Origin: Candidatus Kaiserbacteria bacterium RIFCSPLOWO2_01_FULL_51_21
Lineage (GTDB): Bacteria > Patescibacteriota > Minisyncoccia > Phycocordibacterales > 2-01-FULL-51-21
DNA: 38,205 nucleotides
Assembly: GCA_001781435.1 (NCBI GenBank)
Contig: MFLV01000023.1
Coordinates: 11,191 to 49,395, forward strand
Direction of reading: 5' to 3'
Part shown: positions 4,622 through 35,912 of the stretch, piece after piece
How positions within the stretch are numbered: position 1 is the stretch's first letter
How the letters are laid out: each line of letters starts with the position of its first letter
Made by a program: the position numbers and the translations under genes
The notes under the pieces: model-generated
The model's database searches: none
The model's input: only the letters and a program-made list of their open reading frames with translations
Told to the model about the DNA's origin: nothing

Positions 4622-5019
4622 GACCCACTTGAGCGGAGCTCAAGGGTGATGTGGCTCGTGCGCTTTCTGATGGGAGTCGCCCTCCCGCGCGCGCGAGGCA
4701 TGGATTTCTTAAAGACAAAGCCCTTATCGACGGCGATGTTTTTTATTAAAAGGTTTTCCTTTTCTAACCCACCCTGCTTTGCGTTTGCAACCGCCGCGGC
4801 AAGAAGTTTCTTTACTTGTTTTGCGGCAAGTTTATCCATATGGGTTAAAAGGATCTCCGCGCGTGACACACTTTTACCGCGAATAGCATCGGCAACGAGC
4901 CTGACTTTGCGGGGAGACTGCCGATAGTTTTTTAAAATCGCTTTCGCCCCGTTAGAGATAGGAAGCTGCGCTTCCGAGTGCTTCGTTGTTTCTTTATTTA
5001 GTTGCCTTATCTGTGCCAT
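4594..5019 (-). CDS. rplV: 50S ribosomal protein L22 with an element-derived N-terminal extension
   Basis: NYRQSPRKVRLVAD, PRARGRA, RTSHIT; the first 24 codons lie inside the 4947-5066 element. Confidence 0.95.
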   Translation of the reverse strand: MAQIRQLNKETTKHSEAQLPISNGAKAILKNYRQSPRKVRLVADAIRGKSVSRAEILLTHMDKLAAKQVKKLLAAAVANAKQGGLEKENLLIKNIAVDKGFVFKKSMPRARGRATPIRKRTSHITLELRSSGSNNEVRSKK

Positions 5020-5066
5020 ATATTTCTTTCTTTATTTAAGACAAACTTCCGTAATCTCTAACGGGA
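4947..5066. mobile_element. Palindromic mini-element A (120 bp, GTT/AAC subtype) in the rplV start
   Basis: Ends CCCCGTTAGAGAT and ATCTCTAACGGGA; flanks TTCG (4943-4946) and TTCA (5067-5070). Confidence 0.75.
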
Positions 5067-5076
5067 TTCATCAAGA

Positions 5077-5445
5077 TCATTTCTTTCCAGCCGGCGGCGC
5101 AGTTGTTCCTTCGGTGGTGGCAGCTTTTGCGGCTTGAGCGGAGGCAATCTCAGCTTGCTTTCTCTTCTCCTCAAGCTCTTTTTGCATCTTACCTCCATGT
5201 CGCAGAAATTTCTTGGTCGGAGAAAACTCGCCCAGACGATGCCCCACCATATCTTCCGTGACAAAAACGTCCACGTGTACTTTGCCGTTGTAGACGCCAA
5301 AAGTGAAACCGACCATTTCCGGCGCAATTTGACTCCGGCGCGCCCAGGTCTTAATAACCCCCGCCTTTTCAGATGGGCGTTTGCCGGCAATCTTTTTCAG
5401 CAATGTTTCGTCCACATAGGGACCTTTGATGAGGGACCGTGCCAT
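5077..5445 (-). CDS. rpsS: 30S ribosomal protein S19 with a C-terminal extension
   Basis: [30 protein letters not shown]. Confidence 0.97.
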
Positions 5446-5474
5446 AACAAAAAAGCTCTTGCGAGCGTCTGGCT

Positions 5475-5503
5475 ATACTACGAAAACAATGAGTGAAAGT
5501 CAA
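5475..5503 (-). promoter_or_regulatory. Putative internal sigma70 promoter for rpsS onward
   Basis: TTGACT-17 bp-TAGTAT; the -35 overlaps the direct repeat of element B. Confidence 0.65.
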
Positions 5504-5504
5504 A

Positions 5505-5568
5505 CCCCGTAGCGAATTTTGGCGATAGGGTTCCTGCGCTTCACGCGTCGCAAAAATCTACTACAGGG
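5505..5568 (-). mobile_element. Palindromic mini-element B (64 bp, GTAG/CTAC subtype)
   Basis: Minus strand CCCTGTAGTAGATTTTTGCGA...TCGCCAAAATTCGCTACGGGG; TTTGA repeated on both sides (5500-5504, 5569-5573). Confidence 0.8.
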
Positions 5569-5838
5569 TCAAACGAGAGCCGGCACAATCTTATTGAGAT
5601 TCTTTTTGAATTGCGTAAGCGTACCGCGAGATTTCGCATGGAGAAGTCCGCGAATCATTAGAAGTCCTTCTTCATAGGCGCTTCTGCTTTCGGACCTGCG
5701 CAGAAGCGCAAGCCCGTGATAGGCACGCCCAAGTGAATCCTGGTATTGCTGGAGATTTCCATGGTCGAGGGCAGAGATTGAGCGCACCACGTCAGCGGCA
5801 AGATTGCCGAACTGTAGTGCCGCCACAGGATCCATCAT
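5569..5838 (-). CDS. Small helical hypothetical protein coupled to the DUF5674 gene
   Basis: 89 aa ORF; ATGA overlap with the upstream stop. Confidence 0.75.
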   Translation of the reverse strand: MMDPVAALQFGNLAADVVRSISALDHGNLQQYQDSLGRAYHGLALLRRSESRSAYEEGLLMIRGLLHAKSRGTLTQFKKNLNKIVPALV

Positions 5839-6200
5839 AGGTTGAGCTCCGGTATGTGTTTCTGCACGAGCCCCCGTATGAGATTTCTAAGCAGAGGGTC
5901 CTGCAATTCCATTTCATGGTTTCCCTGCCCGGGGCGAATATTGATGAGTGAAATATATTCAAGAGCCTCCTCCCCCTCTTCCTCGGGATAGAGATTAAAC
6001 CCCCAGGTATCCTCCGGCAGAGAGCCATCCAAAATAAGATGGGCATTCGCGTCCATGTGCCAATCGCCGCCAAGCGCTACAGTGCCGCGGCGGCAATCGG
6101 CAACACCCTTGACCATGGTGCCGTGCCAGCGGCTCGCAAGATCACGAACTTCATCAAGAGAGAGCGGTTCGCGGACAATAAGAATCTCAGGATTTTCCAT
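5835..6200 (-). CDS. DUF5674 family protein
   Basis: VKGVAD...ALGGDWHMD...LDGS...WGFNLYP...SLINIRPGQGN..MELQDP, recognised from memory of the family. Confidence 0.8.
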   Translation of the reverse strand: MENPEILIVREPLSLDEVRDLASRWHGTMVKGVADCRRGTVALGGDWHMDANAHLILDGSLPEDTWGFNLYPEEEGEEALEYISLINIRPGQGNHEMELQDPLLRNLIRGLVQKHIPELNL

Positions 6201-6252
6201 ATACCAGCTATCATACCGTGCAGATACGTGCTCGAGAAGTTATGCCAATACC

Positions 6253-6286
6253 AAAACATCCCCACGCCTTGGCGTGGGGATGTTTT
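6253..6286 (-). terminator. Intrinsic terminator after rplB
   Basis: AAAACATCCCCACGCC / GGCGTGGGGATGTTTT inverted repeat directly after the stop. Confidence 0.75.
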
Positions 6287-6287
6287 T

Positions 6288-7142
6288 TTACTGAGTGGTA
6301 TTCCGTTTCTTGCCGACTTTGCGACGGGAAATAATCAAATAATTAGAATATTTTTTCGGCCGACGGCTCTTCTGCCCCTTGCCGGTTGGCTTGCCCCACA
6401 TCGAAATAGCGCGACGGCGGCCACGGCCAGAGCGTCCTTCACCGCCACCATGAGGATGGTCAACCGGGTTCATCGCGGAGCCTCGCACCGTCGGGCGAAT
6501 GCCGAGCCAGCGGGACCGTCCCGCTTTGCCGATATTGACAAGTTTCCGCTCAGGATTTGAAACCTCACCTACCGAAGCCCATGCGGTATTAAGAATCATT
6601 CGCACTTCAGTTGAAGGCATTTTTACCTGTGTGTAAGGGCTATCCTGAGCAACGATCTCTGCATAATTGCCGGCGCCGCGCGCAAGTTTTCCCCCATTCA
6701 TCGGTTTCAGTTCAATATTATAGACAAAGGTACCAACGGGAATGTTTTTCAAAGGCAGACGGTTACCGGGCACCACTTTGGCCGTTTCAGAAACGATGAA
6801 AGTGTCGCCGACCTTAAGCGAGCGCGGCAGAAGAACATAGCGCCGCTCGCCGTCTTTGTACACAACCCGGCCGATAAAGCCGCCGCGATTCGGGTCGTAC
6901 TCGATTGTTTCAATGGTTGCAGGAATGTCGTGTTTGTTGTACTGAAAATCAATCTCGCGGAAAAGCCGTTTGTGCCCGCCTCCCTTATGGCGCACCGTGA
7001 TGCGGCCAAAAGCATTGCGTCCCACAAAACGCTTGCCGCCGTGTGTCAGCGGTTTATGCGGTTCAGTTGCAGTCAAGAATTTACGATATTCAATTCCGCT
7101 CATGCCGCGCTGGCCTGGTGTTTTTGGTTTGAGGTATTTCAT
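6288..7142 (-). CDS. rplB: 50S ribosomal protein L2
   Basis: GRITVRHKGGGHK, IEYDPNR, AMNPVDHPHGGGEG. Confidence 0.98.
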   Translation of the reverse strand: MKYLKPKTPGQRGMSGIEYRKFLTATEPHKPLTHGGKRFVGRNAFGRITVRHKGGGHKRLFREIDFQYNKHDIPATIETIEYDPNRGGFIGRVVYKDGERRYVLLPRSLKVGDTFIVSETAKVVPGNRLPLKNIPVGTFVYNIELKPMNGGKLARGAGNYAEIVAQDSPYTQVKMPSTEVRMILNTAWASVGEVSNPERKLVNIGKAGRSRWLGIRPTVRGSAMNPVDHPHGGGEGRSGRGRRRAISMWGKPTGKGQKSRRPKKYSNYLIISRRKVGKKRNTTQ

Positions 7143-7145
7143 GGT

Positions 7146-7571
7146 TTATACCATCTCAATCTTATCCCCTGCTTTAAGATACACATACGCCTTCTTGCCG
7201 CCCGCCTTTATGCCGCGAATACGGCGGTTGAAAATAACTTTCGCGGGGATTTTAGTAATTGCGACTTTCCGCGGGCTTACTCCGTAAATCTCCCGCACTG
7301 CCATTTTAATATCGCGCTTGCTGGCTCTCGGAGCAACAATAAACACGTACGTCCCTTTTTCATTCGCAAACGAGGCTTTTTCAGTGATGCGGGGCGAGCG
7401 GAGTATACCGGCATATGTTCCCTTTGCGGCTTGCACCGTTTTTGCCTGGTTCACTTTCGGAGCCGTTTCTTTCGCTGATGGTCCCTTCACCTCTTTTTTC
7501 ACGCGCGAGGGTTGTACCAGCGTTTGAGCTTTTTTTTCTTCAGTATTCTTTTTTCTCTCAAATAGCGCCAT
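7146..7571 (-). CDS. rplW: 50S ribosomal protein L23 with a Lys-rich N-terminal extension
   Basis: PRITEKA, KKAYVYLKAG. Confidence 0.95.
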   Translation of the reverse strand: MALFERKKNTEEKKAQTLVQPSRVKKEVKGPSAKETAPKVNQAKTVQAAKGTYAGILRSPRITEKASFANEKGTYVFIVAPRASKRDIKMAVREIYGVSPRKVAITKIPAKVIFNRRIRGIKAGGKKAYVYLKAGDKIEMV

Positions 7572-7574
7572 GGA

Positions 7575-8246
7575 TTATTTTTTCAGCGCCGCACGCTTCG
7601 CAATGAGGCCGAGGGAAATCTGCGGGTCGACAATTGCTACATAGGTGTATTTGAGCACGTCGCGCGGATTTAGGTTGCGCACCTCGCCGACTTCCACGGT
7701 GCCGAAGTTACGGAAGCTTTTTTCAACCGCCTCATTTCGCGCGGGGAGCGCGATGAATACGGCATTCTTTTTCTTGCTTGCAAGCTTCTCAAACCCAGAG
7801 ACACCGGAGAGCGCCAAAAGCGCCTGCTTTGCTTCCTTTGCTTTCGGCATCGAGAATGAGAGCGAATCAACAAAGAGAACTTCTCCGTCCTTGAGCTTCC
7901 GCGAGAGCGCAGAGAAAAGCGCCTGTACCCGCATCTTTTTATTCAAGCCCTTCGCGAACACCCGCTCTTTAGTCGGTCCGAAGGTGATGCCGCCGCCGCG
8001 CCACAGTGGGCTCCGGATAGAGCCGTGCCGCGCGCGACCGGTGCCCTTCTGTTGCCAGGGCTTGCGTCCGCCGCCGCGCACTTCGCCGCGCTGTTTCGTG
8101 TGGGCGATCGGCACACGGGCATTGGCTTCCATCGCCACCACCACCTGGTGTACTAAATCAGGATTCCACTTTGCGCCAAATACACGCTCCGGCAGCGCAA
8201 CCATTCCAACTTTCTTTCCTTGCTGATTGAAAATAGTCGCCTCCAT
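7575..8246 (-). CDS. rplD: 50S ribosomal protein L4 (alternative start at 8345)
   Basis: TKQRGEVRGGGRKPWQQKGTGRARHGSIRSPLWRGGG. Confidence 0.96.
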   Translation of the reverse strand: MEATIFNQQGKKVGMVALPERVFGAKWNPDLVHQVVVAMEANARVPIAHTKQRGEVRGGGRKPWQQKGTGRARHGSIRSPLWRGGGITFGPTKERVFAKGLNKKMRVQALFSALSRKLKDGEVLFVDSLSFSMPKAKEAKQALLALSGVSGFEKLASKKKNAVFIALPARNEAVEKSFRNFGTVEVGEVRNLNPRDVLKYTYVAIVDPQISLGLIAKRAALKK

Positions 8247-8336
8247 ATTGTTTAAATTCTCAACAACTGGTTCAGAAGACGGACGTTTTGTCTTCCTCGG
8301 CGTTCGCGATACCACTTTTTTTGTTTTTATTTTTCC

Positions 8337-8364
8337 CTGATTCATAATTCTTGATTCCAGATTC
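8337..8364. repeat. Heptamer array, four units
   Basis: CTGATTC ATAATTC TTGATTC CAGATTC at the rplC-rplD junction. Confidence 0.7.
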
Positions 8365-8367
8365 CTC

Positions 8368-8997
8368 CTACATTCCGCGAACTTCGACGAGAGCGCCGCG
8401 GCGTCCCGGCACCGCACCGGAGACGACGAGCACATTGTTGTCCTTATCAATCTGAAGAACTTTCAAGTTTTTGACTGTTATGCGGTCTCCGCCCATACGC
8501 CCCGCCATACGCATACCCTTGATGACACGCCCTCCCGCACGACCGCCACCGCCGATGGAGCCTGGCTCGCGCTCCGAGTGCTTTTGGCCATGAGAGCGAG
8601 GCCCACCGTGGAAACCGTGCCGCTTCACCACACCCTGGAATCCTTTGCCTTTTGAAATTGCGGAGACGGCAACGGTATCGCCTTCTGCAAACACTGAAAC
8701 ATCGAATTGCTTCCCGACTTCCATATCCTCCAGTTTTTCTTTCCGGTCTTCATTCGGGCGAAATTCTTTGAGCCCGCGATAAAGCGCGCCACCCATTTTC
8801 CCTTTTTCAGCTTTAGTGAGATGCTTTTCTTTCCGCGTGCCGTAGCCAAGCACTACCGACGAGTATCCGTCCTTCTCCGGGAGTTTAACTTGCGTCACTG
8901 TCATGGGAGACACAATTAAAACAGTCGCCGGGTGAACTATCCCCTGCTCATCAAAAATTTGTGTCATTCCTTGCTTGGTTCCAACTATGAATTTCAT
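8368..8997 (-). CDS. rplC: 50S ribosomal protein L3
   Basis: Start MKFIVGTKQGMTQIF at 8997; SKGKGFQGVVKRHGF; MAGRMG. Confidence 0.97.
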   Translation of the reverse strand: MKFIVGTKQGMTQIFDEQGIVHPATVLIVSPMTVTQVKLPEKDGYSSVVLGYGTRKEKHLTKAEKGKMGGALYRGLKEFRPNEDRKEKLEDMEVGKQFDVSVFAEGDTVAVSAISKGKGFQGVVKRHGFHGGPRSHGQKHSEREPGSIGGGGRAGGRVIKGMRMAGRMGGDRITVKNLKVLQIDKDNNVLVVSGAVPGRRGALVEVRGM

Positions 8998-9093
8998 GAA
9001 ATGAAAAATGCGCCTCAATGGCGCAAGCAACGAGCTTGTGAGCCATTGGTCCGCCTTCGGCGGACTTAGCGACGCCAAAACTGGCGTAGGGAG

Positions 9094-9121
9094 AGTATAC
9101 ATGAGCACCTGAAAAATGCAA
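9094..9121 (-). promoter_or_regulatory. Putative sigma70 promoter for rplC, followed by a multi-hairpin leader
   Basis: TTGCAT-16 bp-TATACT; leader hairpins ACGCCA/TGGCGT, GTCCGCC-GAA-GGCGGAC and TGCGCC/GGCGCA. Confidence 0.6.
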
Positions 9122-9157
9122 AGGATACAAAAATTGGTGGAAGACTCTACAGAACTT

Positions 9158-9949
9158 TTATTGCGATTCCTGAAGATATCTAGAGACAAAAAATTTACCT
9201 TTTTCAGTCAGCGCAATTTGCTCTGAACCCCCTGACCCACTAATAGTGACTAATCCTTTGGTATGAACTAAGGCAAGGATATTCGAATCAATAAGTCGTT
9301 GGTAACCATAATCAGACTGGAATTTTTGAGTTTTGCCTCCATTATTGTAAAGAACCTCTGTCACCTGTCTTATTTTTGGATAAAGATGATTCTTCTTAAA
9401 ATCTTCAAACTCTTGTTCCCATAATTCTTCCTGTGTTGTCACCCCCTTTATAGTTTTTCTTTTTTCCGCTTGACTAGCTTTTGAAGTTGCAATACTTTCC
9501 AACGTTTTTTCTTTTTTTCTTTCGAGTGAGAGAATCCATTGGTCATGTTCATGCCTTTTGGTCTCAAACATCCTTTTTCTCTCAAAACGACTTTCTAAAT
9601 ATTTTTCAAGAGCCCACTTTTGAACACGGGGCAAATACATTATTGTCACCCAAGTAAAAATTGCTGGAGGAATAAGATGCCAGGCATCATTAGCAAGGAA
9701 GTCGAGTATTGGGTTCCCCAGAGAAAAAGAAAGTTCAGATGAAATATATTCGATACGAGGGCTTATGAATAATGACGAATGCTCAAGAAAAATGATTTGA
9801 AAAAACTTCCAGTTCCAAGCTACAAAAAACCCAATATAGGTAAAATATAGAGGGCTACTTGTTTTTTCACTAGACCATTTTGAAAATGATGACCAAAAAC
9901 CATCCATAAAAAGATCTAGAATTTTGTTGAAGTTTGGAACTTCATGCAA
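9158..9949 (-). CDS. AT-rich hypothetical membrane protein between rpsJ and rplC (start may be 9907)
   Basis: 263 aa ORF; two hydrophobic segments, charged helical middle, C-terminal IALTEKG. Confidence 0.8.
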   Translation of the reverse strand: MHEVPNFNKILDLFMDGFWSSFSKWSSEKTSSPLYFTYIGFFVAWNWKFFQIIFLEHSSLFISPRIEYISSELSFSLGNPILDFLANDAWHLIPPAIFTWVTIMYLPRVQKWALEKYLESRFERKRMFETKRHEHDQWILSLERKKEKTLESIATSKASQAEKRKTIKGVTTQEELWEQEFEDFKKNHLYPKIRQVTEVLYNNGGKTQKFQSDYGYQRLIDSNILALVHTKGLVTISGSGGSEQIALTEKGKFFVSRYLQESQ

Positions 9950-9980
9950 TTACCCTACGTCAATTTGGTTTAAAATCAAG

Positions 9981-10016
9981 GAATGAAAAAGCCCCTGAAT
10001 AGGGGCTTTTTCATTC
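9981..10016 (-). terminator. Intrinsic terminator after rpsJ
   Basis: GAATGAAAAAGCCCCT-GAAT-AGGGGCTTTTTCATTC. Confidence 0.8.
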
Positions 10017-10028
10017 TGTGAATCTTCA

Positions 10029-10430: not shown

Positions 10431-10435
10431 TGAGT

Positions 10436-10516
10436 TTAGCTGTTAGCCGTTAGGTATTAACTTCGTTAGCCATCCAGAATTTCTAATGGCTAAGGCAGCT
10501 AACTGCTAATGAAGCT
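10436..10516. repeat. Inverted arrays of TTAGC/GCTAA units at the tuf-rpsJ junction
   Basis: TTAGC TGTTAGC CGTTAGG ... CGTTAGC, then GCTAAG GCAGCTAA CTGCTAA TGAAGCT. Confidence 0.7.
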
Positions 10517-10518
10517 GC

Positions 10519-11712
<1,194 letters not shown>

Positions 11713-11847
11713 AGTGCTTTTGGCTCGTAGAGAGAAGCGAGTGCGCGAGAGAGGCCTCACTTCCTCCTGCGAGCAGACTAAATTGATAATGCCGCAGAGG
11801 ATAACGCCTCTTCAAAACAAAAAGAACGCACCACTGCGATCGTCACT

Positions 11848-11875
11848 ATCATAATCAAACGACAAAAATAGTCAA
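11848..11875 (-). promoter_or_regulatory. Putative sigma70 promoter of tuf
   Basis: TTGACT-16 bp-TATGAT, directly abutting element C. Confidence 0.6.
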
Positions 11876-11910
11876 CCCCGCACTTTCTGGGTATCAAAGA
11901 AAGTGCGGGG
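11876..11910. repeat. Short palindrome C with CCCCG/CGGGG ends (may also act as terminator of the upstream gene)
   Basis: CCCCGCACTTTCT-9 nt-AGAAAGTGCGGGG; no flanking direct repeat. Confidence 0.6.
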
Positions 11911-11919
11911 CGATGCTGT

Positions 11920-12399
11920 TCATATATCCTGATGATCAGCTTCTTCGAGGGCCTGCTTTGCTGTCTCCTTTCCCCAGTACACCATCATCGCGACGCAGAA
12001 ATACTTGTGCGTTACATCAAGACAAGCTGTTTGGTACGCCTCAAAAAGCTCTTCAAGACCGATACCCTTCTCTGCGGCAATGTGAACTTCGAAGTGGAAC
12101 ACGAACCCGCGGTCGTCTTGAAGCTCGCATTCGCTGTCATGCAGCCGAAAATTTATAAGCTCAACGAGTTTCTTAAGTTCCGTATTTTCGTCGAGGAAAT
12201 AATACAGAGGCGCGCACGAGAGAATCGTTCTTGTGTTTCGAATAATCGAGACATCGCAGGTCGTTACAATTGACTCATACACGGCCGTCCGGCGATATAC
12301 GCAGCTTACGCGATCCTCCCGCATACGGCTCCAGTGTTGTTCGGCCGCGAACTTTTCGAACATATGTTCAAGACGCTTCGTGTCATGATGCTCCCGCAT
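11920..12399 (-). CDS. Hypothetical protein, possibly YbjN-like, between fusA and tuf
   Basis: AAAGGAGG site before ATG 12399; LVELINFRL...GFVF...GKETAKQAL pattern resembles YbjN. Confidence 0.6.
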   Translation of the reverse strand: MREHHDTKRLEHMFEKFAAEQHWSRMREDRVSCVYRRTAVYESIVTTCDVSIIRNTRTILSCAPLYYFLDENTELKKLVELINFRLHDSECELQDDRGFVFHFEVHIAAEKGIGLEELFEAYQTACLDVTHKYFCVAMMVYWGKETAKQALEEADHQDI

Positions 12400-12518
12400 G
12401 ACTGCCTCCTTTCGTCTGGAGAGAATTAGAGCACTTTCAAAAAAATCTGTCAAAACAAAACCCGTGCTGCGCGTTTGGCTACGGGGCGAGACATGGTGAA
12501 GCAAAAGTCTGTAAGAAA

Positions 12519-24853: not shown

Positions 24854-24878
24854 CGCCAATTATTGTAACATTGCTATA

Positions 24879-25010
24879 CCCCGTAGTAGATTTTGGCATT
24901 GTCTCTTCGTTGCGACGGTTATTGTAACAGCGGACAGTGAATTTCATTTCGAGTATAGCTGGAAAGCTTTACTTAGAGACAGGGCAACTATGCCAAAATT
25001 CACTACGGGG
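24879..25010 (+). mobile_element. Palindromic mini-element D (132 bp, GTAG/CTAC subtype)
   Basis: CCCCGTAGTAGATTTTGGCAT...ATGCCAAAATTCACTACGGGG, flanked by TATA at 24875-24878 and 25011-25014. Confidence 0.85.
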
Positions 25011-25023
25011 TATACTGTCTCCC

Positions 25024-25392
25024 ATGGAACAAGATTGCGTATTCTGCAAAATCACGCGAGGAGAAATTCCCTCAATAAAAATATACGAGGACGCTGACTA
25101 TCTTGCCTTTATGGATATCCGACCGCGCGCCCCAGGGCACGCCCTGGTCATTCCAAAACAGCACTATCGCTGGGTATGGGATGTTCCGGATATAGGAACC
25201 TATTTTGAGAAAGCGCGTGATGTTGCTCGGGCAATACAGAAAGCGTTCAGCACTGACATGGTTCATTCGAAGGTAGAGGGAGAAGAGGTTCACCATGCCC
25301 ACATTTGGCTTTATCCTGACCCAAAAAATACTCTGGGAAACAAGGACAACCTCGTTGGAAATGCAGAAAAAATACGCACAGCACTCGGTTAG
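25024..25392 (+). CDS. HIT family nucleotide hydrolase
   Basis: [23 protein letters not shown]. Confidence 0.92.
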
Positions 25393-27378: not shown

Positions 27379-27415
27379 ACTCTCCCTTGTGGAAACGCAG
27401 GGAGAGTTCTTTTTT
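27379..27415 (+). terminator. Intrinsic terminator
   Basis: ACTCTCCCT...AGGGAGAGT followed by T run. Confidence 0.6.
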
Positions 27416-27499
27416 AATCTATCCCGTGCCCAACCACTTCAATATCGCCGCCGCGATCGATGTTATATTTTCTTTCATAGTTGCCCGCGTATGCATCTA

Positions 27500-29387: not shown

Positions 29388-29416
29388 GTTCGCCTATGAT
29401 AACACGCTCTTTGCCC

Positions 29417-30700
29417 CTAAATTTCTTCCCAGGAATCGATGCTGAAACTTCCCGATGGCCCCGATGAAAAATTGAGATTGATGACGCCTGTCTCGTACGT
29501 CACCAGCGCACTGTTTTGAAGGTGTAATTTATACCCGGTCACTTCACGAAGCGAAACGTTATTTCTAATCAGAATTTCGCCTCGTCCCGCATAAAGAAGA
29601 AGTTTGCCGTTAGCGCTATTTTGCAAGGTTATGGCAACATTCGAACCTCCGGCCTCCGCACTGCGATTTTGCGATAAAAAAACAATATAGGACTGCGGGT
29701 CACCTGATCCGAAAAATGAGCCGTTGTTAAGATCCATAATAGCGCTATTTAAATTGTCCGAAGGATTGTCTGCAATAATCTGTGCGCTGTTCTTTCCAAG
29801 CGACGAGGCAGCAACAATGGTCGGATTGTTTTGAAACGTCACGTTGCCTACGACCCAAATGGGGCCCGCAAAGGTCACGGTTGGATTTCCGCTTACCACA
29901 AGATCACAGGCGATTTTTTTAGGGCCAATCGTTGTATCCGAACTGATAACATACGGGCAGGGCGACGAAATCGTTCCGCCAGAAGCTGCCACACTCTCCC
30001 ATGTTTCGACCAAGGCGTCGGAGATAGGAAGCGAGGAGGTGGACTGATCGGCGCTTCCGGGGTAAGAGGTCCTTAAAACAGTCGACCCCGAAATACTCTG
30101 GTAGTACGCGTCTTTATCAATGGTCGAATTTTGAATCGTATGAGCATACATCGAACTTGTCGCATGAATACCGCTAACGAAACCCGATGGTCCCGCGGAA
30201 ATCACGTCGCCGCCGATACTATTGCCGGACCCCTGTATCGGCCCATTTGATAGGACATTGCCATATACCCGCGAGCTGTTTTCAAGAAGCATGCCTCCCA
30301 CATCGGATTGGACGCCAAAACTAAATGAGGCGCCGGTTCCAACGATAAGCACCGCCGAAATGGCCCGAGTTACCTCGCTTTCAGTTTCCGCAACAGTAGC
30401 GAGCGACTTCCCATTAAACACATCCACAATAGTCGTCGTTGCCGCCACTCCCCCGAGCGTCAGCGTTTGCGGAGAGACGACGGCATTTCCTTGTTTTAAG
30501 CGCAAACTTACGTCTTCCAAAGACCCTTCAGCCGCAAAATAGCTCTGCTTTGATTCGACTAAGGTCCGCACACCGCGTATTTCTTTTACTATCGGGGTTA
30601 CAATGCCGGCAATAATGACAAGGCTTCCAAAAAGAAAGAGCAGCACGGCCGTAATAACTGCTTGCCCTTGTGATCGCGGAATATTTGAAAATTTTTTCAT
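29417..30700 (-). CDS. PilX-like minor pilin with a large beta-rich C-terminal region
   Basis: Prepilin-like GQAVITAVLL; SYFAAEGSLE; ends SWEEI. Confidence 0.7.
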   Translation of the reverse strand: MKKFSNIPRSQGQAVITAVLLFLFGSLVIIAGIVTPIVKEIRGVRTLVESKQSYFAAEGSLEDVSLRLKQGNAVVSPQTLTLGGVAATTTIVDVFNGKSLATVAETESEVTRAISAVLIVGTGASFSFGVQSDVGGMLLENSSRVYGNVLSNGPIQGSGNSIGGDVISAGPSGFVSGIHATSSMYAHTIQNSTIDKDAYYQSISGSTVLRTSYPGSADQSTSSLPISDALVETWESVAASGGTISSPCPYVISSDTTIGPKKIACDLVVSGNPTVTFAGPIWVVGNVTFQNNPTIVAASSLGKNSAQIIADNPSDNLNSAIMDLNNGSFFGSGDPQSYIVFLSQNRSAEAGGSNVAITLQNSANGKLLLYAGRGEILIRNNVSLREVTGYKLHLQNSALVTYETGVINLNFSSGPSGSFSIDSWEEI

Positions 30701-30702
30701 AG

Positions 30703-31206
30703 TTAATAGGCACCACGCAAAACCGCAAAATCCTCAAATGATTCACTTTTTGTTCCTACGGAACTGGTCGCCGTGAGAATTAATTGGATGCGCACTCCAA
30801 GGATTGAACTTGAGGTAATTTTCTCAAACATAAGGGTGTCAACGCTTACATCGGGAAGCGTGAGCGACCCGATGTCGATTCCATTCTCACGTACACGCAA
30901 TGAGCCATTCACAAGCGAGAACATGGTTGTCGTTGCGCCCGAGAGGAGCGTGAGCTGCCCTGGATTTGCGTTTAAAATACTTGCGGCATCAACCGAGCTT
31001 GCGGCGCGAATATCGCGCATCATCCGCTCCATGCCAATCGTCGCACTCTCATTAATATGGCGCGCCACGATAAGCGCTCCATAGGAGCGCATCATGGAAA
31101 CAAAAAGACCGATAATGGCAGTGAGGAGAAGAACCAAAAGTGCAACATAAATAAGCGCTTCAAGAAGCGTCATGCCTCGAGACGATGTCCTCAAAAGACG
31201 ATGCAT
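30703..31206 (-). CDS. Type IV minor pilin
   Basis: Cleavage/N-methylation motif G-MTLLE. Confidence 0.85.
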   Translation of the reverse strand: MHRLLRTSSRGMTLLEALIYVALLVLLLTAIIGLFVSMMRSYGALIVARHINESATIGMERMMRDIRAASSVDAASILNANPGQLTLLSGATTTMFSLVNGSLRVRENGIDIGSLTLPDVSVDTLMFEKITSSSILGVRIQLILTATSSVGTKSESFEDFAVLRGAY

Positions 31207-31207
31207 A

Positions 31208-31681
31208 TTAATTGTCTAAAAGATTAGTCAGATAGGTCATAATGGTTGTCGTGCCATCTTCCCAAACAACTTGGGCGGTCACGTGTCGTGTATTACTGTC
31301 AAAAGAAGCAGAAGGGTTTGCGGAAACAATCTCTTTTGAAACGTCGTCGCGATATACATCATCAAAAATAATGACCCGAGTAAATCCATCGTTCGACGAT
31401 ATGGTTGTCGAGAGAGTCCAGCCATTGTTCCAATCAAGATAATACGCGCTGCTCGAAGCAAGTGGTGCAATATTAGTGGTCCATGAACTATCGCGGAGAT
31501 AACGCACCGCTTCGAGTCCCTCTTCAGCATACAGAGCCGCTTGAATTTTTTGGGTATTTGCCAATCCGCCATGGACCGAAATATTAAACGAAGACAAAAT
31601 ACCGACAAGTGCCGTCGCGATAATTGCCGCCCCAATCACAACTTCAAGAAGCCCTATTCCCTGTTTCCGGCTATACCGCAT
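31208..31681 (-). CDS. Type IV minor pilin (PilV-like)
   Basis: G-IGLLEVVI; AEEGLEAVR. Confidence 0.85.
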   Translation of the reverse strand: MRYSRKQGIGLLEVVIGAAIIATALVGILSSFNISVHGGLANTQKIQAALYAEEGLEAVRYLRDSSWTTNIAPLASSSAYYLDWNNGWTLSTTISSNDGFTRVIIFDDVYRDDVSKEIVSANPSASFDSNTRHVTAQVVWEDGTTTIMTYLTNLLDN

Positions 31682-32147
31682 AGGTAACGTGTCTTGCTAC
31701 GCGGATAAGACCAGTGGCTTCGATAGTTATCGTTCTCGTTTTTGAAGCGTCTGAAACAAGCATGACTACCACGTTTCCGGTCGTGTTCACTTTCCCGCTT
31801 GCTCGGGCAAATACGATATCGCTTCCGCCCGTAGTAAAATTTATGGCACTAATCTGAATGCGCGAAGATAGCGTAGTGATTTGATTGTCCGGATCAGACG
31901 CATTGTAGGTTTCTCCCTTGAAGAGCGTAACGGTAGAACTTGTAAAATGTATGCCGTAGGAGGAGGCGCCAACGCTTCCCATAGCTTTTGATCGCGCCTC
32001 GTTTACTACGGAAGCTATTTCAATTGTACTGGTATCGAGAGTCTTTGTTCCACTAAATTGATTAAGTGCGATGATGCTAAAAATAAAAAGACCGCCAAAG
32101 AGCGCAACGACAATGAGTACTTCCATAAGGGAAAAAGCGCGGCTCAT
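31671..32147 (-). CDS. Type IV minor pilin (FimT/GspH-like)
   Basis: A-FSLMEVLIV; ARSKA. Confidence 0.85.
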   Translation of the reverse strand: MSRAFSLMEVLIVVALFGGLFIFSIIALNQFSGTKTLDTSTIEIASVVNEARSKAMGSVGASSYGIHFTSSTVTLFKGETYNASDPDNQITTLSSRIQISAINFTTGGSDIVFARASGKVNTTGNVVVMLVSDASKTRTITIEATGLIRVARHVTYAV

Positions 32148-33361
32148 ATGGCGTTTGAAAGCGAATAGATCGGGCTAATAACTGAAAGCGCAAAGAAGCC
32201 AACCGCAATTCCGATAACAACCATAAGAATGGGCTCGATAATAGTCGACATATTTTTTGTCTTCTGCTCAACCTCGTTTTCATAAAACGTCGCAACTTGG
32301 AGAAGCATCGTGGAGAGTCCCCCCGTTTCTTCTCCGACCGAAATGAGTTCGCCCATAAGCGGCGGGTAGAGATGCTCGTTTTGAGAAAAGGCTGGTGCGA
32401 TCTGAAGACCTTTTTGGATTTGCTTCTGCGCCTCCGCAAGCACTTCACGGAAGTAGGAATTTTGGATAACCTCACGAGCAATTGAAAATGCCGTTATCAC
32501 TTCAACCCCCGAAGAAAGAAGGGAGGAGAGCGTGCGCGCGGTCCGAGCAGTGTTAACTTCGCGCACAAGCCCTTTAATGATCGGGGTGCGCAGGAGAACA
32601 AATTCAAACGTCCGATGTCCTCGCGGTGTTCTCAAAAGGGCAATAAAACCCATCACTCCGCCGACAACACCGAAAATGGCAAGAAGGAAATTTCCGACAA
32701 ACCAGTCGCTCACGCCGATGATAATGCGGGTGGTAAGCGGTAACTGTACGTCAAATTCTTTGAATGTAGCAGTCAGTGTTGGAACCACAAAAATAAGCAT
32801 CGTAATGCCGATGATTACCATTGCGGAAAGGACGATACCCGGATACATCATCGCGCCTCTGATTTTTTTAGTAAGCATATATGAACGCTCTACCTGGTCG
32901 GCAACACCAAGAAGAGCCCCCGATAATTTACCGCTTTCGTCCCCCGCTTTTACCATAGCGATAAAAAGCTTCGGAAACACTTTGGGAAACTGCTCCATTG
33001 CCTCATGAAGACTTCTCCCGCGTTTGATCCCCTCAATGAGGGAAAGCAGGACTTCTCTTAAATGCCGATTTCTTGTTTGCCGCTCAAGCACCCCGAGTCC
33101 CCGAGAGAGCGGTAATCCTGCCGCAAGCATAGCGCCGAGGTTCCGCGCAAAAACAATTTTCTCGCTCGTACGTACGCTGCCAAAAAAAGAGATGAGCTTT
33201 CTCACATCGATGTGAAGCCCTTCCCTGACTTCATTGATCGAAACGACCGTCCCACCCACCTTACGCACCTCGGCATACACGGCAAAACGGTCCGGCAAGT
33301 CTAGCGTCTCTTCATACGTCTCTCCTCCCGCGTGTGTGGCTTTATAGTGAAATTTTGGCAT
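32144..33361 (-). CDS. pilC: Type IV pilus / type II secretion platform protein (PilC/GspF family)
   Basis: Two GspF domains: AGDESGKL, AMMYP, GEETG, IEP. Confidence 0.93.
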   Translation of the reverse strand: MPKFHYKATHAGGETYEETLDLPDRFAVYAEVRKVGGTVVSINEVREGLHIDVRKLISFFGSVRTSEKIVFARNLGAMLAAGLPLSRGLGVLERQTRNRHLREVLLSLIEGIKRGRSLHEAMEQFPKVFPKLFIAMVKAGDESGKLSGALLGVADQVERSYMLTKKIRGAMMYPGIVLSAMVIIGITMLIFVVPTLTATFKEFDVQLPLTTRIIIGVSDWFVGNFLLAIFGVVGGVMGFIALLRTPRGHRTFEFVLLRTPIIKGLVREVNTARTARTLSSLLSSGVEVITAFSIAREVIQNSYFREVLAEAQKQIQKGLQIAPAFSQNEHLYPPLMGELISVGEETGGLSTMLLQVATFYENEVEQKTKNMSTIIEPILMVVIGIAVGFFALSVISPIYSLSNAI

Positions 33362-33369
33362 ATTATGCA

Positions 33370-33430
33370 GAAGTACGAAGTACAGGAATAAAGCTCATGG
33401 CACGATCTCGTAATTCGTAATTCATAATTC
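33370..33430. repeat. Inverted heptamer arrays at the pilB-pilC junction
   Basis: GAAGTAC GAAGTAC ... GTAATTC GTAATTC ATAATTC. Confidence 0.75.
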
Positions 33431-33438
33431 GCGATTTC

Positions 33439-35190
33439 TTACTCCGAGATAACACGGAGTACTTCTTCAATCGTGGTAATACCCTGTGCCGCTTTGAAAA
33501 TACCGTCTTCAAACATCGTGAGCATTCCCTCCGTCACTGCCTGTTTTTCAATCGTATCTTCCGTGCCTCCTTTCATCACAATGTCTTTAATCGTTGGCGT
33601 CACCGGAAACACCTCATGAATACCGATACGACCGCTAAAACCATCAGGGCACTCGGGAGAAGCTTTCGCTTTATAAAAAGGAATTTTCTCCCACGTAGCT
33701 CCCCCGGGAACGATTTTCTCCTCTTTCAGCGTTGAGAGGACATGATCAAGGTTGACCGACTTGCCAAGTGAAGTAATTTCTGACTGCGAGAGACGGTATT
33801 CCTTCCGCGGAGAACAAAGCTTCCGTACCAGTCGCTGGCCGATAATCACGTTCACGGTTGAAACCAAAAGAAAAGGTTCGGAGCCCATGTCAATCATGCG
33901 CGGGATTGCGCCAGCGGCTGAATTGGTATGCAGAGTCGAGAGAACAAGATGCCCGGTGAGTGCGGCGTTAATGGCAAGCGAGACGGTTTCTTTGTCGCGA
34001 ATTTCCCCGACCATGATGATGTCGGGATCCTGTCGCATAAATGTGCGAAGTCCTGCGGCAAAGGTGAAGCCTATTTCCGGCTTCACCTGCGTTTGGTTGA
34101 CCCGAGGCATTTGATACTCGATAGGATCTTCAATTGTCGAGATATTTACTTCCGGCGTGTTCAGGATATCGAGAAGCGTATAGAGCGTTGTGGTCTTACC
34201 GGAACCGGTCGGACCGGTGGTGAGGAGCATGCCGGTTTTTTGTTTTGCGGCGCTGTGCAAGCGCTCAAGCGCCTCGCCATGAAATCCCAAACTTTCCAAG
34301 GTGAACCCTCCCGCGCTCTCTCGCAGCAACCGCATAACTACCTTTTCGCCATAGAAAACCGGCAGAAGCGAGACGCGCAAAGATACTTTTTGCCCGTGTA
34401 AATCTATTTTGAAGCGGCCGTCCTGTGGAAGCCTTTTTTCATCGAGTTTAAGATTCGCAAGAACTTTAATGCGTGCGGTGATCGAGGAAGCGGCGGTCTT
34501 TGGAAGCATCATCGCATCGTGGAGAATACCGTCAATGCGATAGCGCACGACCAATTCTTTCTCCATCGGCTCGATATGGACGTCGGAAGCATTCTGCACG
34601 ACGGCATGGGAGAGAAGTGAATCAACGATGCGCACCACCGGTAAATCCTCAGCGAGCTTTTTAAGATCACTTACCGAGGCATCGCTTCCCGGTTCGTTGG
34701 AAATAGCCTTGAGGGCCTCTGATTCGGCTTGGATAATATCGCCAAATTCGTCTTTGAGCGTTTTTTGATACTGCAGAAGTGCACTTTTAATGGAATCGGC
34801 ATCGGTAAGCCGCGGCAGAATCTTGAGCCCAACCTTTTTTTTCACGAAATCAATCGCTTCAAGGTCGCCGGTATCAAGCATTGCCACTTCAAGAGCGTCT
34901 CCAGTTTTCTTAAAAGCGAGAATGTTGTGATTGCGCGCGATGGGTTCCGGAATAAGAGAGAGTGCTTCGGGGTCAATCTTCTTCCCCTTTAAGTTAACAA
35001 AGGGAATTCCTAAGACATACGCTTGCATGCGGCGCATATCATCTTCAGTGACTACCGCTCTCTCTACCAGTACCTTACCGATGCTTACGTTGTCTTTTTC
35101 CGCCTGTTTTTCGGCATCTTCAAATTCACTCCGCGGCACCAAGCCAGAGTCGACAATGAATCCTTTGAGTTGTTTCTCGTCAATGTACAT
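33439..35190 (-). CDS. pilB: Type IV pilus assembly ATPase (PilB/GspE family)
   Basis: ASDVHIEP, RLPQDG, GPTGSGKTT, RQDPDIIMVGEIRD, TGHLVLSTLH; start ATG 35190. Confidence 0.95.
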   Translation of the reverse strand: MYIDEKQLKGFIVDSGLVPRSEFEDAEKQAEKDNVSIGKVLVERAVVTEDDMRRMQAYVLGIPFVNLKGKKIDPEALSLIPEPIARNHNILAFKKTGDALEVAMLDTGDLEAIDFVKKKVGLKILPRLTDADSIKSALLQYQKTLKDEFGDIIQAESEALKAISNEPGSDASVSDLKKLAEDLPVVRIVDSLLSHAVVQNASDVHIEPMEKELVVRYRIDGILHDAMMLPKTAASSITARIKVLANLKLDEKRLPQDGRFKIDLHGQKVSLRVSLLPVFYGEKVVMRLLRESAGGFTLESLGFHGEALERLHSAAKQKTGMLLTTGPTGSGKTTTLYTLLDILNTPEVNISTIEDPIEYQMPRVNQTQVKPEIGFTFAAGLRTFMRQDPDIIMVGEIRDKETVSLAINAALTGHLVLSTLHTNSAAGAIPRMIDMGSEPFLLVSTVNVIIGQRLVRKLCSPRKEYRLSQSEITSLGKSVNLDHVLSTLKEEKIVPGGATWEKIPFYKAKASPECPDGFSGRIGIHEVFPVTPTIKDIVMKGGTEDTIEKQAVTEGMLTMFEDGIFKAAQGITTIEEVLRVISE

Positions 35191-35281
35191 GCGAGAGTCG
35201 GTTGACTCCAGTATAACGCAAGGCGCATTGTGTTGTCCTTTTATTTCTATATACTTACTGCGGATATTACGGAGAACTCCG

Positions 35282-35638
35282 ATGAAAGATACGGCAGTCA
35301 AGCGCGATTGGCTTTTTCTTCCCGTTCACAAGATAGACGACCTTGTCCTGCGTAAAGCGACAAAACGGGCGTACTGGAAAGGAGGAAAGGTCAATCTCAC
35401 CGTCAGACAATTCGACCTCGTGGACCTTCTCTTCTCCCACCGCGGCACGGACATTTCCTCCCGCAAGCTATACGATACCTTTCGCGGACGTCCCGGCCTG
35501 CTGGCGGGAAACGGTCCAGAAGGATACCGGGTGAATCTGCGCGTCGTCATAATGCACATTCGGAAGACATTCAAGGCGATTGACCCGGCGTTCGATGAAA
35601 TAGAGACGTTCGCGGGTTTCGGTTACCGATGGAAATAG
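35282..35638 (+). CDS. Stand-alone OmpR/PhoB-type winged-helix DNA-binding domain
   Basis: GGAG before ATG 35282; LT..QFDL...IRKTF..IDP.FD.IET..GFGYRW; no receiver domain. Confidence 0.8.
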   Translation: MKDTAVKRDWLFLPVHKIDDLVLRKATKRAYWKGGKVNLTVRQFDLVDLLFSHRGTDISSRKLYDTFRGRPGLLAGNGPEGYRVNLRVVIMHIRKTFKAIDPAFDEIETFAGFGYRWK

Positions 35639-35651
35639 CCGGGAGAGCCCC

Positions 35652-35680
35652 ACTGCCGCGTCACTAGGCGCGGCAGTTTC
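35652..35680 (+). terminator. Terminator-like hairpin
   Basis: ACTGCCGCG-TCACTAGG-CGCGGCAGT after the stop codon. Confidence 0.55.
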
Positions 35681-35692
35681 AATGCTTGTTGA

Positions 35693-35760
35693 CCCCGTAG
35701 TAGATTTTGGCGATGCGCCGAAGGCGCGGGCATAGCCCTTCGCCAAAATTCACTACCGGA
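35693..35760 (+). mobile_element. Palindromic mini-element E (68 bp, GTAG/CTAC subtype)
   Basis: CCCCGTAGTAGATTTTGGCGA...TCGCCAAAATTCACTACCGGA, flanked by TTGA at 35689-35692 and 35761-35764. Confidence 0.82.
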
Positions 35761-35764
35761 TTGA

Positions 35765-35884
35765 CCCCGTTGAGAGTACGCGGGCGCAGTATTTCAATAC
35801 CGATACCATAAGTACCTCACGAGTTGATGAGCACGGTTCTCTGCGCAAAAAATTCACAGCGCACGCGCCCTACTTCTAACGGGG
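35765..35884. mobile_element. Palindromic mini-element F (120 bp, GTT/AAC subtype)
   Basis: CCCCGTTGAGAGTA...TACTTCTAACGGGG, flanked by TTGA at 35761-35764 and 35885-35888. Confidence 0.78.
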
Positions 35885-35912
35885 TTGACAAAAAACAGGG
35901 AGGGTATAAACT
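35885..35912 (+). promoter_or_regulatory. Putative sigma70 promoter upstream of nusA
   Basis: TTGACA-16 bp-TAAACT; its TTGA is the flanking repeat of element F. Confidence 0.65.

Follow-up and report, generated by a model that had tools for sequence, protein, structure and literature searches.

Six short palindromic features in a 38,205-nt stretch of Candidatus Kaiserbacteria bacterium RIFCSPLOWO2_01_FULL_51_21 (contig MFLV01000023.1; G000:C23:11191-49395; hereafter the window) raise the question of how DNA that looks mobile can sit on the promoter boxes and start codons of genes such as rplV, rpsS and nusA. An initial annotation of the window called these features elements A to F, and all six proved to be present in the sequence where it had placed them. 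It proposed that they are a mobile family that survives next to essential genes because the target duplication restores the signal. We think it probable that each of the six features is a copy from one of two related families of hairpin elements that resemble MITEs (miniature transposable elements with inverted repeats), that are spread through the Patescibacteria, and whose lineages differ in their targets. Copies whose outermost bases are C:G would go mainly into TTGA before C, i.e., the −35 hexamer, and less often into TATA or other T...A tetramers, and T:A-ended copies of the type-2 family would go into first codons, always in one orientation relative to the gene. The gene keeps its own signal because the duplication leaves an intact copy on the gene side. 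At start codons, the last A of the element and the duplicated TG would together rebuild ATG, and a terminal G would give GTG.

The source genome (G000) consists of 629,313 bp in 28 contigs with ~50% G+C, and our own rough gene calls give 692 genes and 89.5% coding sequence. We used a comparison genome of the same genus (G001), which is syntenic with G000 over two stretches, and sampled 41 genomes of the order (the others each from a different GTDB family) and 401 genomes of the phylum. Loci that bear an element, including those in contigs of public metagenome-assembled genomes (MAGs), have L numbers (e.g., L101). Because copies within a genome are related, as are the genomes themselves, the P values given below overstate independence.

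Two families of hairpin elements

All six elements fold as hairpins closed by their own terminal inverted repeats, with predicted energies of −22 to −55 kcal/mol. The initial annotation divided them into three inner subtypes, which we find to be two real families plus element C, with just one other element seen that has the CCCCGCAC ends of C. Elements B, D and E belong to the type-1 family, whose 19-bp ends are CCCCGTAGTAGATTTTGGC (left) and GCCAAAATTCACTACGGGG (right), and elements A and F belong to the type-2 family, with the ends CCCGTTAGAG...CTCTAACGGG. In G000, the type-1 19-mer has 14 matches at ≤2 mismatches and the type-2 end followed by ATG has 17, compared with 0 for the reversed control in each case. 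When ≤4 mismatches are allowed, the type-1 end has 26 matches, with eight clear pairs of 64–134 bp, and most of the apparent solo ends have a partner of more degenerate sequence. The type-2 ends form 26 paired elements in G000. A generic scan for CCC...GGG inverted ends returned many type-2 copies and two smaller groups, one with CCCCGTGAGATA ends, mostly at TATA, and one with CCCCGCAC ends. From reading these scans, rather than from a formal count, we estimate ~50 elements in G000, or roughly 1% of the genome. The elements are 41–295 bp in size and non-coding, without an open reading frame (ORF) for a transposase.

The exact type-1 19-mer is found in 86 stretches of public Patescibacteria MAG contigs, where 85 of 90 ends have a partner 64–138 bp away. 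These contigs and G000 together make up a type-1 set of 98 distinct copies, and the contig titles name Patescibacteria, Paceibacterota, Kaiser-, Wolfe-, Zambryski- and Nomurabacteria and 'uncultured Candidatus Saccharibacteria'; one chance match to the 19-mer lies in a Bryobacterales contig. The 19-bp ends are conserved over all 98 copies, which is the terminal inverted repeat of a MITE. The type-1 interiors are diverse (median similarity ratio 0.49) and keep one or two mini-hairpins (n = 77, mean z −2.7, 56 of 77 below −2 and one above 0). Because the mini-hairpins persist despite sequence divergence, the shape of the type-1 element is conserved, either for the enzyme that moves it or for some host use.

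For the type-2 family, we pooled 42 start-codon copies from six genomes, restricted outside G000 to copies that abut an ATG. Their outer 14 bp have 0–3 mismatches between the arms. C:G-ended and T:A-ended type-2 copies are separate lineages within a genome, and their interiors differ. The start-codon motif YTCTAACGGGATG is present in 13 of the 41 genomes of the order, the sole same-genus genome having none, and in 43 of the 401 genomes of the phylum (36 of the 339 of good quality), with 0–1 matches per genome for the reversed control. Type-2 ends number 15–84 per genome in five further genomes, and the type-1 end is found in 7 of the 41 genomes of the order.

Empty sites and target duplications

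The prediction that orthologous sites would be empty, with a single copy of the repeat, was borne out. All six sites compared (rplV, rpmI and the mraY-, ftsW-, murG- and gltX-like genes) are empty in G001 and have one repeat copy each, the alignment of G000 and G001 being poor at the ftsW-like site, and from this we conclude that the elements are insertions. G001 shares the upstream flank attgcgct.aaacATGAA of the gltX-like site, and there this flank runs directly into the gene. The start codon at the empty G001 sites is close behind the preceding stop codon. The region G000:C10:24500-36500 is not syntenic with G001 and hence gave no further empty sites. In four DNA read runs examined over G000:C23:2000-21999, no joint that precisely removes an element was found among the best 15 of 132 joints. 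Many contigs from these runs have the element ends with other interiors and flanks, and they therefore show only that the family is abundant in those samples.

Five of the six elements had been described as having flanking repeats, and we find TCAAA at B, TATA at D, TTGA at E and F, and TGAA/CGAA with one mismatch at A. In the type-1 set, 83 of 98 copies have an exact direct repeat of 2–7 bp, mostly 4–5 bp. The duplicated sequences are varied (TATA, TAAA, TTTA, TAGA, CAAG, TCGTA and others), mostly with T first and A last. Five near-identical type-1 copies on contigs of one MAG have differing flanking repeats, TTGA, TCAA and TCGTA among them, and therefore the type-1 repeat is made from the target rather than carried by the element. 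For this reason we rejected, for type 1, a 'target memory' in which the element itself would carry the repeat (as a piggyBac-type overhang or an IS608-type guide); such a memory is conceivable for the start-codon lineage.

Insertion at −35 hexamers

The commonest type-1 repeats are TCAA (21), TTGA (10), TATA (4) and TTTGA (4). An exact TTGA/TCAA duplication is present in 31 of the 98 copies, and in 26 of these 31 the next base is C, so the unoccupied site read TTGAC(A/T). A TANNNT sequence lies 16–18 nt downstream in 23 of the 31 TTGA/TCAA sites. As controls, such a partner is present in G000 at 29 of the 123 TTGAC sites and 47 of the 612 TTGA sites that lie between genes (Fisher P 3e-7 and 8e-18, respectively), the control sites being from one genome and the elements from many.

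In the window, this arrangement is seen at B and at the pair E and F. Element B (type 1, 64 bp, 5505–5568, no strand) is flanked by TCAAA at 5500–5504 and 5569–5573, and it folds at −26 kcal/mol with two inner mini-hairpins. The promoter scan places a promoter-like TTGACT-17-TAGTAT (5475–5503, minus strand) against B and upstream of rpsS, whose S19 domain lies in ORF 5077–5445, and the −35 hexamer of this site includes the gene-side copy of the duplication. Element E (type 1, 68 bp, 35693–35760, no strand) has TTGA flanks and a degenerate right end (CCGGA), and element F (type 2, C...G-ended lineage, 120 bp, 35765–35884, no strand) has TTGA flanks and is in tandem with E. TTGA occurs three times around the pair (35689–92, 35761–64 and 35885–88); thus, E and F are tandem insertions on one site. 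The third TTGA opens the −35 hexamer of a promoter-like TTGACA-16-TAAACT (35885–35912, plus strand, 10/12, regional best) that lies against F, upstream of the nusA region, with the NusA domains in ORF 36171–37352.

Element D (type 1, 132 bp, 24879–25010, no strand) has TATA at 24875–24878 and 25011–25014 and folds at −55 kcal/mol. The gene-side copy of its duplication is kept in TATACT, which is followed after 7 nt by the ATG of a HIT-family gene (25011–25026, plus strand), an arrangement of the leaderless −10/start type. A near-identical copy of D with the same flanks is present in a public MAG contig (L101). The earlier assignments of these repeats to the rpsS and nusA −35 hexamers and to the HIT −10 hexamer thus agree with what we find, and restoration of the signal by the duplication, which would explain how the elements survive, fits every junction that we read. 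The regional best promoter-like sites in the window touch B, C and F.

Insertion at first codons

Of the 26 paired type-2 elements in G000, 21 stand where a gene begins, and the other five, F among them, do not. The same end (CTAYYTCTAACGGG) faces the gene in all 21, and the next base opens an ATG or GTG, followed in 19 of the 21 by an ORF of 63–750 aa; the other two are C11:6126, where the ORF has 29 aa, and element A. The usual junction reads ATGAA-T-[CCCG...CGGG]-ATGAA. In the pooled copies, the outermost pair is T:A in 38 of 42, and the upstream and downstream pentamers are identical (an exact 5-nt repeat) in 26 of 42. The targets of T:A-ended type-2 elements are A/TGAA, A/TGGA and A/TGTA. 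The copy before adk (C23:8245) has GTGAA on its upstream side and ATGAA on its downstream side, the start codon reads GTG at the two gene-start copies in G000 that end in C...G, and the two bases after the ATG match on the two sides (all 4 copies with ATGGA upstream in G000 have ATGGA downstream too). From these three observations, we conclude that the A of the rebuilt ATG is supplied by the element. Orientation is identical in 13 of 13 copies of the 115-nt and 190-nt classes.

The occupied genes in G000 are murA-, murB-, murG-, mraY-, ftsW- and ftsI-like genes, atpB, atpF, adk, map, tig, smc, gltX, rpmI and rplV, named from their N-terminal sequences, with a family search for L22 only; in other genomes rpsL and rpsD are among the occupied genes. 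ATGRA occurs in G000 at 120 called starts, at 247 intergenic sites and at 2271 intragenic sites. If all intragenic insertions were lost and all intergenic ones kept, 33% would be expected at starts, and we observe 19 of 21 (P ~6e-8). Together with the −10 partner at 23 of 31 versus 29 of 123 sites, this shows the enrichment at expression signals, beyond composition, that the initial annotation had called for. The same holds outside the family of the source genome, where we scanned five genomes of other GTDB families with an end pattern lacking ATG. Among the 31 distinct ends found, 21 of 22 T:A-ended elements abut an ATG that opens an ORF of 59–448 aa (P ~1e-9, same null), and the rest are two second ends of symmetric elements, one odd 42-bp case and six C:G-ended elements, 6 of 6 flanked by TTGA/TCAA. 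Five further genomes, from another class and family, gave 13 readable elements, ten of them T:A-ended; seven of these ten abut an ATG with an ORF of 37–284 aa, two precede ORFs that are short or cut, and one lies directly against a tRNA gene.

In that last case (L155:1419-1600, G349:C2), the gene is for tRNA-Leu(TAG), the last bases of the element, GGA, are the first three of the acceptor stem called by ARAGORN, and the flanks are inverted (ACTCG / CGAGT). In addition, L062 and L065, from public MAG contigs, are type-1 elements whose outer bases are T...A (TCCCGTAG...CTACGGGA) and which do not lie at an ATG; a T:A tip alone is therefore insufficient to dictate start-codon insertion. Tandem double insertions are seen as well, with the end of another element just upstream of the start-codon copies L031, L020, L035 and L040.

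Element A is a start-codon copy whose rebuilt codon has decayed. It is a type-2 element (4947–5066, minus strand, core CCCGTTAGAG...CTCTAACGGG at 4948–5065) that folds at −33 kcal/mol and sits at the start of rplV, in the first codons, as had been claimed. In G001 the rplV site is empty, with a single ATG where A sits. The gene begins ATG CGC GCG ACT CTT AAA AAT TAT in G001 and reads GCG AAA GCG ATT TTA AAA AAC TAT after the element in G000, and from this alignment we conclude that A sits right behind the original ATG. The upstream target copy ATGAA (5067–5071, minus strand), which is the original rplV start codon, lies 5 nt past the rpsS stop codon. The flanks are ATGAA upstream (5071–5067, minus) and GCGAA downstream (TGAA versus CGAA as a 4-bp repeat, one mismatch), and the gene-side terminal base of the element is now G instead of A. 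An ATG within the element (5017–5019, minus strand; ORF 4594–5019) is in frame with L22 and is now the sole in-frame start for this ORF. The Pfam L22 domain covers residues 27–128 of the 141-aa ORF, which has a 26-residue N-terminal extension encoded by element A, since decay has turned the rebuilt junction codon into GCG. The upstream ATGAA opens an 11-codon upstream ORF (uORF), MNPVRDYGSLS, whose stop precedes by 16 nt the in-frame ATG from which L22 now starts, and this arrangement fits a uORF and re-initiation as we propose below.

All of this might be thought a matter of survivorship, if insertion took place at loose T...A tetramers anywhere, with no targeting of functional sites, and selection, in a genome with very short spacers, left only the copies whose duplication happened to mend a signal. 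The genome is ~89.5% coding, the type-1 duplications are varied, and only two of the five near-identical, presumably recent, copies in one MAG are at TTGAC, as such a process would allow. However, G000 has 247 intergenic versus 120 start ATGRA sites, and yet 19 of 21 and 21 of 22 copies are at starts. The −10 partner is present at the TTGA/TCAA target sites at 3 times the rate for intergenic TTGAC. The tandem double insertions (E–F and the arrays at L031, L020, L035 and L040) point to a site preference at insertion, and survival alone does not account for the fixed orientation. We consider it unlikely that selection alone produced the distribution, and we return to the interpretation that the lineages differ in their targets.

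Expression of genes behind the hairpins

The start-codon copies fold at −17 to −63 kcal/mol and place a hairpin directly against the genes they precede. In G000, a Shine-Dalgarno (SD) motif precedes 12.7% of called ATG starts, compared with a background of 12.6%, and TANNNT has a peak exactly 6 nt before the ATG (50 of 412 genes, versus ~8 at other distances). This sharp peak is a signature of leaderless mRNAs, and G000 thus appears to initiate translation mostly without SD sites, be it on leaderless mRNAs or in some other way. In such a host, with no use of the SD sequence and with leaderless and re-initiating ribosomes, the insertions would be nearly harmless. A short uORF would begin at the upstream ATG copy and extend into the hairpin, with ribosomes restarting at the rebuilt ATG. 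The uORFs from the upstream ATG copy are 3–95 codons long. TANNNT at 6–9 nt was counted 17 times, per match, over the 42 copies, versus 114 over 412 ATG genes genome-wide, which is suggestive only that the start-codon sites are transcription starts of leaderless genes.

Two other ways of expressing these genes were rejected. In-frame translation of the element is not the rule, since the lengths are not multiples of 3 and in-frame stops lie 12–138 nt before the ATG; only element A and two others read in frame. A mobile promoter was also discarded, with no forward promoter-like site found within four start-codon copies.

Could the start-codon copies serve the host as RNA modules, either for control of translation or for cleavage at the foot of the stem that releases leaderless mRNAs? 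tRNAs punctuate mitochondrial transcripts in a comparable way. G000 has no SD signal and many leaderless-type starts, copies precede consecutive operon genes (mraY-, ftsW-, murG- and gltX-like), and the same genes are occupied across families (murG in G000, G010 and G014; gltX in G000 and G014). The terminal stem is kept while interiors and lengths (50–194 bp) vary, the sense strand is richer in A than in T in 31 of 42 copies, and a tRNA-Leu gene takes its first three bases from one copy. On the other hand, G001 does without the elements at all six compared sites, 28 of the 41 genomes of the order lack the motif, and terminal repeats are conserved in any active MITE family. The comparison with known RNA families in Rfam, which the initial annotation had suggested, gave 0 matches in the window at the gathering score and 0 at E up to 1 in a 6.5-kb stretch with four start-codon copies. 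A host-serving role is in our judgment quite improbable, and we continue to treat the copies as MITE-like insertions.

Search for the enzyme that moves the elements

Insertion, one part of the earlier proposal of a non-autonomous mobile family, stands, while for the other part no parent transposase bounded by the same ends was found. We infer that the elements are non-autonomous from their small size and lack of an ORF, no parent transposase having been found. No parent insertion sequence (IS) with the same ends is present among the 90 ends in public contigs, a search that did not look for end pairs 1–3 kb apart. The five unpaired ends are three degenerate copies (L057, L084 and L085), one whose partner lies at the very start of the locus (L108) and one chance match outside the Patescibacteria (L122). 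Viral contigs gave 0 matches to the element ends. The enzyme would act in trans and cut its target with a 4–5 bp stagger, and it would not be a recognizable DDE transposase of the tested families.

Only one transposase-like family, Y1_Tnp (PF01797), was found widely: 27 of the order's 41 genomes have it, among them G000 and 11 of the 13 genomes with the start-codon motif. This raises the alternative that the elements are moved as single-stranded hairpins by a resident HUH tyrosine transposase rather than a DDE enzyme, in the manner of REPINs, the hairpin being the recognition feature; such enzymes include the tyrosine transposases associated with repetitive extragenic palindromes (REPs), or RAYTs, and TIRYT. 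The conservation of mini-hairpins in the type-1 interiors (mean z −2.7) and the orientation-specific insertion of the start-codon lineage, as in IS200/IS605, would agree with this. HUH Y1 elements are not known to make a target duplication, whereas true duplications of varied sequence surround copies with identical ends here. Y1 presence also fails to track the elements (11 of 13 genomes with the motif versus 16 of 28 without, Fisher P 0.16), and G029, with 22 motif matches, gave no Y1 match.

The sole Y1_Tnp gene of G000 (C27:15316-16008, RAYT-like, 230 aa) is tied to a different palindrome, CTTGGAGGCTWAGCCTCCAAG (21–29 bp; region C27:15280-16045), which flanks it and has 7 copies in the genome. 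Two CTTGGAGGCTWAGCCTCCAAG copies lie inside the Y1 coding sequence in frame, encoding ..LGGLASKL.. and ..LRGLASKL... The type-1 end has GTAG four bases in from the tip, at positions 5–8 and inside the CCCC cap, and GTAG is absent from types 2–4, type 2 having GTTAG instead. REPs that RAYTs cleave carry GTAG as their tag (Di Nocera et al. 2013, PMC3733652), and a term search of that article finds neither 'duplication' nor 'target site'. Mobilization by a Y1 enzyme strikes us as not likely, and a trans-acting enzyme that makes staggered cuts remains our preferred explanation.

Comparison with known elements

Four of the five features that define MITEs were found (inverted repeats, a duplication, small size with multiple copies and no ORF, and presence/absence between relatives), the fifth, a parent IS, being the one that was not. 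By structure and behavior, the elements are MITEs. Among the closest in kind are the Correia elements or NEMIS of Neisseria, which are likewise small, non-coding and multi-copy, have terminal inverted repeats and a target duplication, show presence/absence between relatives, and lie beside genes, where they affect or preserve expression signals. Correia elements duplicate TA, whereas the elements described here duplicate 4–5 bp. Correia elements can create promoters at their own ends and are RNase III substrates (PMC2649163). The present elements, in contrast, bring no promoter, as judged from four copies, and re-create the host −35 box or start codon, one of their lineages is confined to first codons in a fixed orientation, and their parent IS was not found. 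A term search of a 2024 review of prokaryotic MITEs finds none of 'start codon', 'Patescibacteria' and 'candidate phyla'.

The REP/REPIN-RAYT and TIR-TIRYT systems share with these elements long hairpins, Y1 genes in most hosts, the absence of a DDE parent, and, for type 1, GTAG near the ends. Unlike REPs and REPINs, these elements have target duplications and a CCCC/GGGG cap outside GTAG, the type-2 family has no GTAG, and the Y1_Tnp gene of G000 is flanked by the other palindrome rather than by element ends. Because target duplications are made and the local RAYT-like gene carries other repeats, the elements are not REPs or REPINs in the strict sense.

Rickettsia palindromic elements (RPEs) are also palindromic mini-elements with no known transposase in a reduced genome, and they can join a protein, as element A does with L22. 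In-frame insertions of RPEs have been described (PMC10969869), and RPEs lie within ORFs, in frame, and end in CGTC (PMC3733652). The present elements lie at the first codon or at promoter boxes, and only A is translated as part of a protein; they are not RPEs.

Translational bypass elements, such as the gap in T4 gene 60 and the mitochondrial 'byp' inserts, offer a further likeness, as they insert between identical take-off and landing codons with a hairpin right after the first. The sites here are initiation codons, the inserts are 50–194 nt, and nothing in the sequences points to bypass.

Weighing the interpretation

Several observations count against the interpretation of these features as MITE-like families with lineage-specific targets, and we bring them together here. 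An exact repeat is lacking in 15 of the 98 type-1 copies, and the length of the duplication varies, being mostly 4–5 bp, 2–3 bp at some start-codon copies and 7 bp at two loci. Among 10 T...A-ended copies of a more distant family, a direct repeat is kept by only 4, and one copy has inverted flanks. A 5-base target combined with loss of intragenic insertions cannot account for >90% of copies at start codons, nor for the fixed orientation. In 33 of 42 copies, the stem takes in part of the rebuilt AUG, whose A and U pair with the preceding AU; this should hinder initiation. When re-initiation is treated as a simple walk, it arrives at the rebuilt ATG, or at an in-frame start, for 36 of the 42 copies, but it does equally well with the element reversed (34 of 42) or its interior shuffled (33.2 +/- 2.2), so the walk is a permissive explanation and remains undemonstrated. 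Only 9 of the 42 copies have a uORF that stops at the repeat's TAA, 4 nt ahead of the ATG.

We accordingly dropped the re-initiation walk as a cause of the fixed orientation, the reversed and shuffled controls being as good, and likewise a tight coupling of stop and start at this TAA, which so few copies show. The two loci with a 7-bp repeat are L085 and L100, from public MAG contigs; both have TTATCCA, and they may be the same site in related genomes.

The search for a mover adds to this list. No full-length parent was found, and 85 of 85 paired type-1 ends in public contigs are MITE-sized. The elements recall IS1380/piggyBac, whose ends begin CC(C) and which have 4–5 bp duplications and a preference for T...A tetramers, and the type-2 end presumably resembles the piggyBac terminal repeat, which we take as a lead only. 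Unlike what such a parentage would suggest, PF13701 (IS1380-type) is found in 0 of 5 genomes and PF13843 (piggyBac-type) in 0 of 41, the latter being a weak blank because the control gave no match in any genome. PF01609 (IS4/IS5-type) is likewise found in 0 of 5 genomes, PF13586 in 0 of 5 in each of two sets, and PF13546 (IS701-type) in 1 of 41. PF07282 (TnpB) is found in 0 of 5, and the elements differ further from palindrome-associated transposable elements (PATE), which derive from IS200/IS605, in having inverted repeats and duplications. PF00665 (rve-type) is present in 3 of 10 genome checks, which represent nine genomes with G004 in two sets, and the one rve IS that we read (G358) has unrelated TGTTTTGAC ends. 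G063, a single-contig genome with nine start-codon motifs, is among the genomes without transposase matches.

A bolder possibility is that insertion is directed at working gene-start signals (the −35/−10 boxes, the first codon and one tRNA 5′ end), rather than at a word of 4–5 bases alone, by an integrase that would be coupled to the transcription-initiation complex or to its DNA shape, by analogy with Ty3 at Pol III starts, with the hairpins being cut at the foot of the stem or the ribosome moving between the AUGs. We regard this as doubtful. If it were true, the elements would amount to mobile gene punctuation in bacteria without SD initiation.

Signal-rebuilding insertion on promoter boxes and first codons is probably an undescribed lifestyle for selfish DNA. 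At the level of abstracts, the literature searched held nothing on such elements in Patescibacteria or on MITEs aimed at start codons. To our knowledge, and within those abstracts, a phylum-wide lineage confined to first codons, with a terminal base that completes the ATG, is new, as are sister lineages in the −35 hexamers of real promoters. If confirmed, this would mean that mobile DNA persists in genomes of 0.5–1 Mb, with little spare sequence, by re-creating gene-start signals base for base. With dozens of essential genes that have a hairpin of −17 to −63 kcal/mol touching the AUG, SD-independent or leaderless initiation in Patescibacteria becomes directly testable. The conserved ends also provide an annotation marker and would explain miscalled start codons in genomes of the candidate phyla radiation (CPR), e.g., the 26-residue extension of L22.

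Element C and other features of the window

Element C is a 35-bp perfect hairpin (CCCCGCACTTTCT...AGAAAGTGCGGGG, 11876–11910, minus strand) with a 13-bp stem, a 9-nt loop and CCCCGCAC ends, which folds at −22 kcal/mol and has no target duplication. It starts 9 nt past the stop codon of ORF 11920–12504 and is followed by TTGACTATTTTTG, with the U-rich tail UUGACUAUUUUUG. It abuts a promoter-like TTGACT-16-TATGAT of tuf (11848–11875, minus strand, 10/12, regional best), and the EF-Tu domains were found by Pfam in ORF 10519–11760. Thus, the earlier description of C as abutting the tuf −35 without a repeat stands, and its place behind a stop codon and its U-rich tail are those of a terminator. C is most likely a terminator, as judged from its position and sequence, and is possibly element-derived. 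It is not in the output of the terminator scan, which has a loop limit of 8. The one further CCCCGCAC-ended element seen in G000 is at C22:30365-30537 and has the target duplication TATA.

Pfam identifies neighboring genes in the window as those for L22, S19, EF-Tu, the HIT protein, RecJ and NusA. S19 (5077–5445) has a C-terminal extension of ~39 aa past the Pfam domain. Upstream of rpsS, the region 5569–6200 on the minus strand holds a DUF5674 gene (5835–6200) and an 89-aa ORF with no Pfam match (5569–5838), and rplB (6288–7142) is named from ORF size and position alone. Upstream of nusA, a perfect GC-rich palindrome, acgtccgcccccgaggggcggacgt, lies at 35930–35960, ~20 nt past the TTGACA/TAAACT site, and is possibly an attenuator or leader hairpin.

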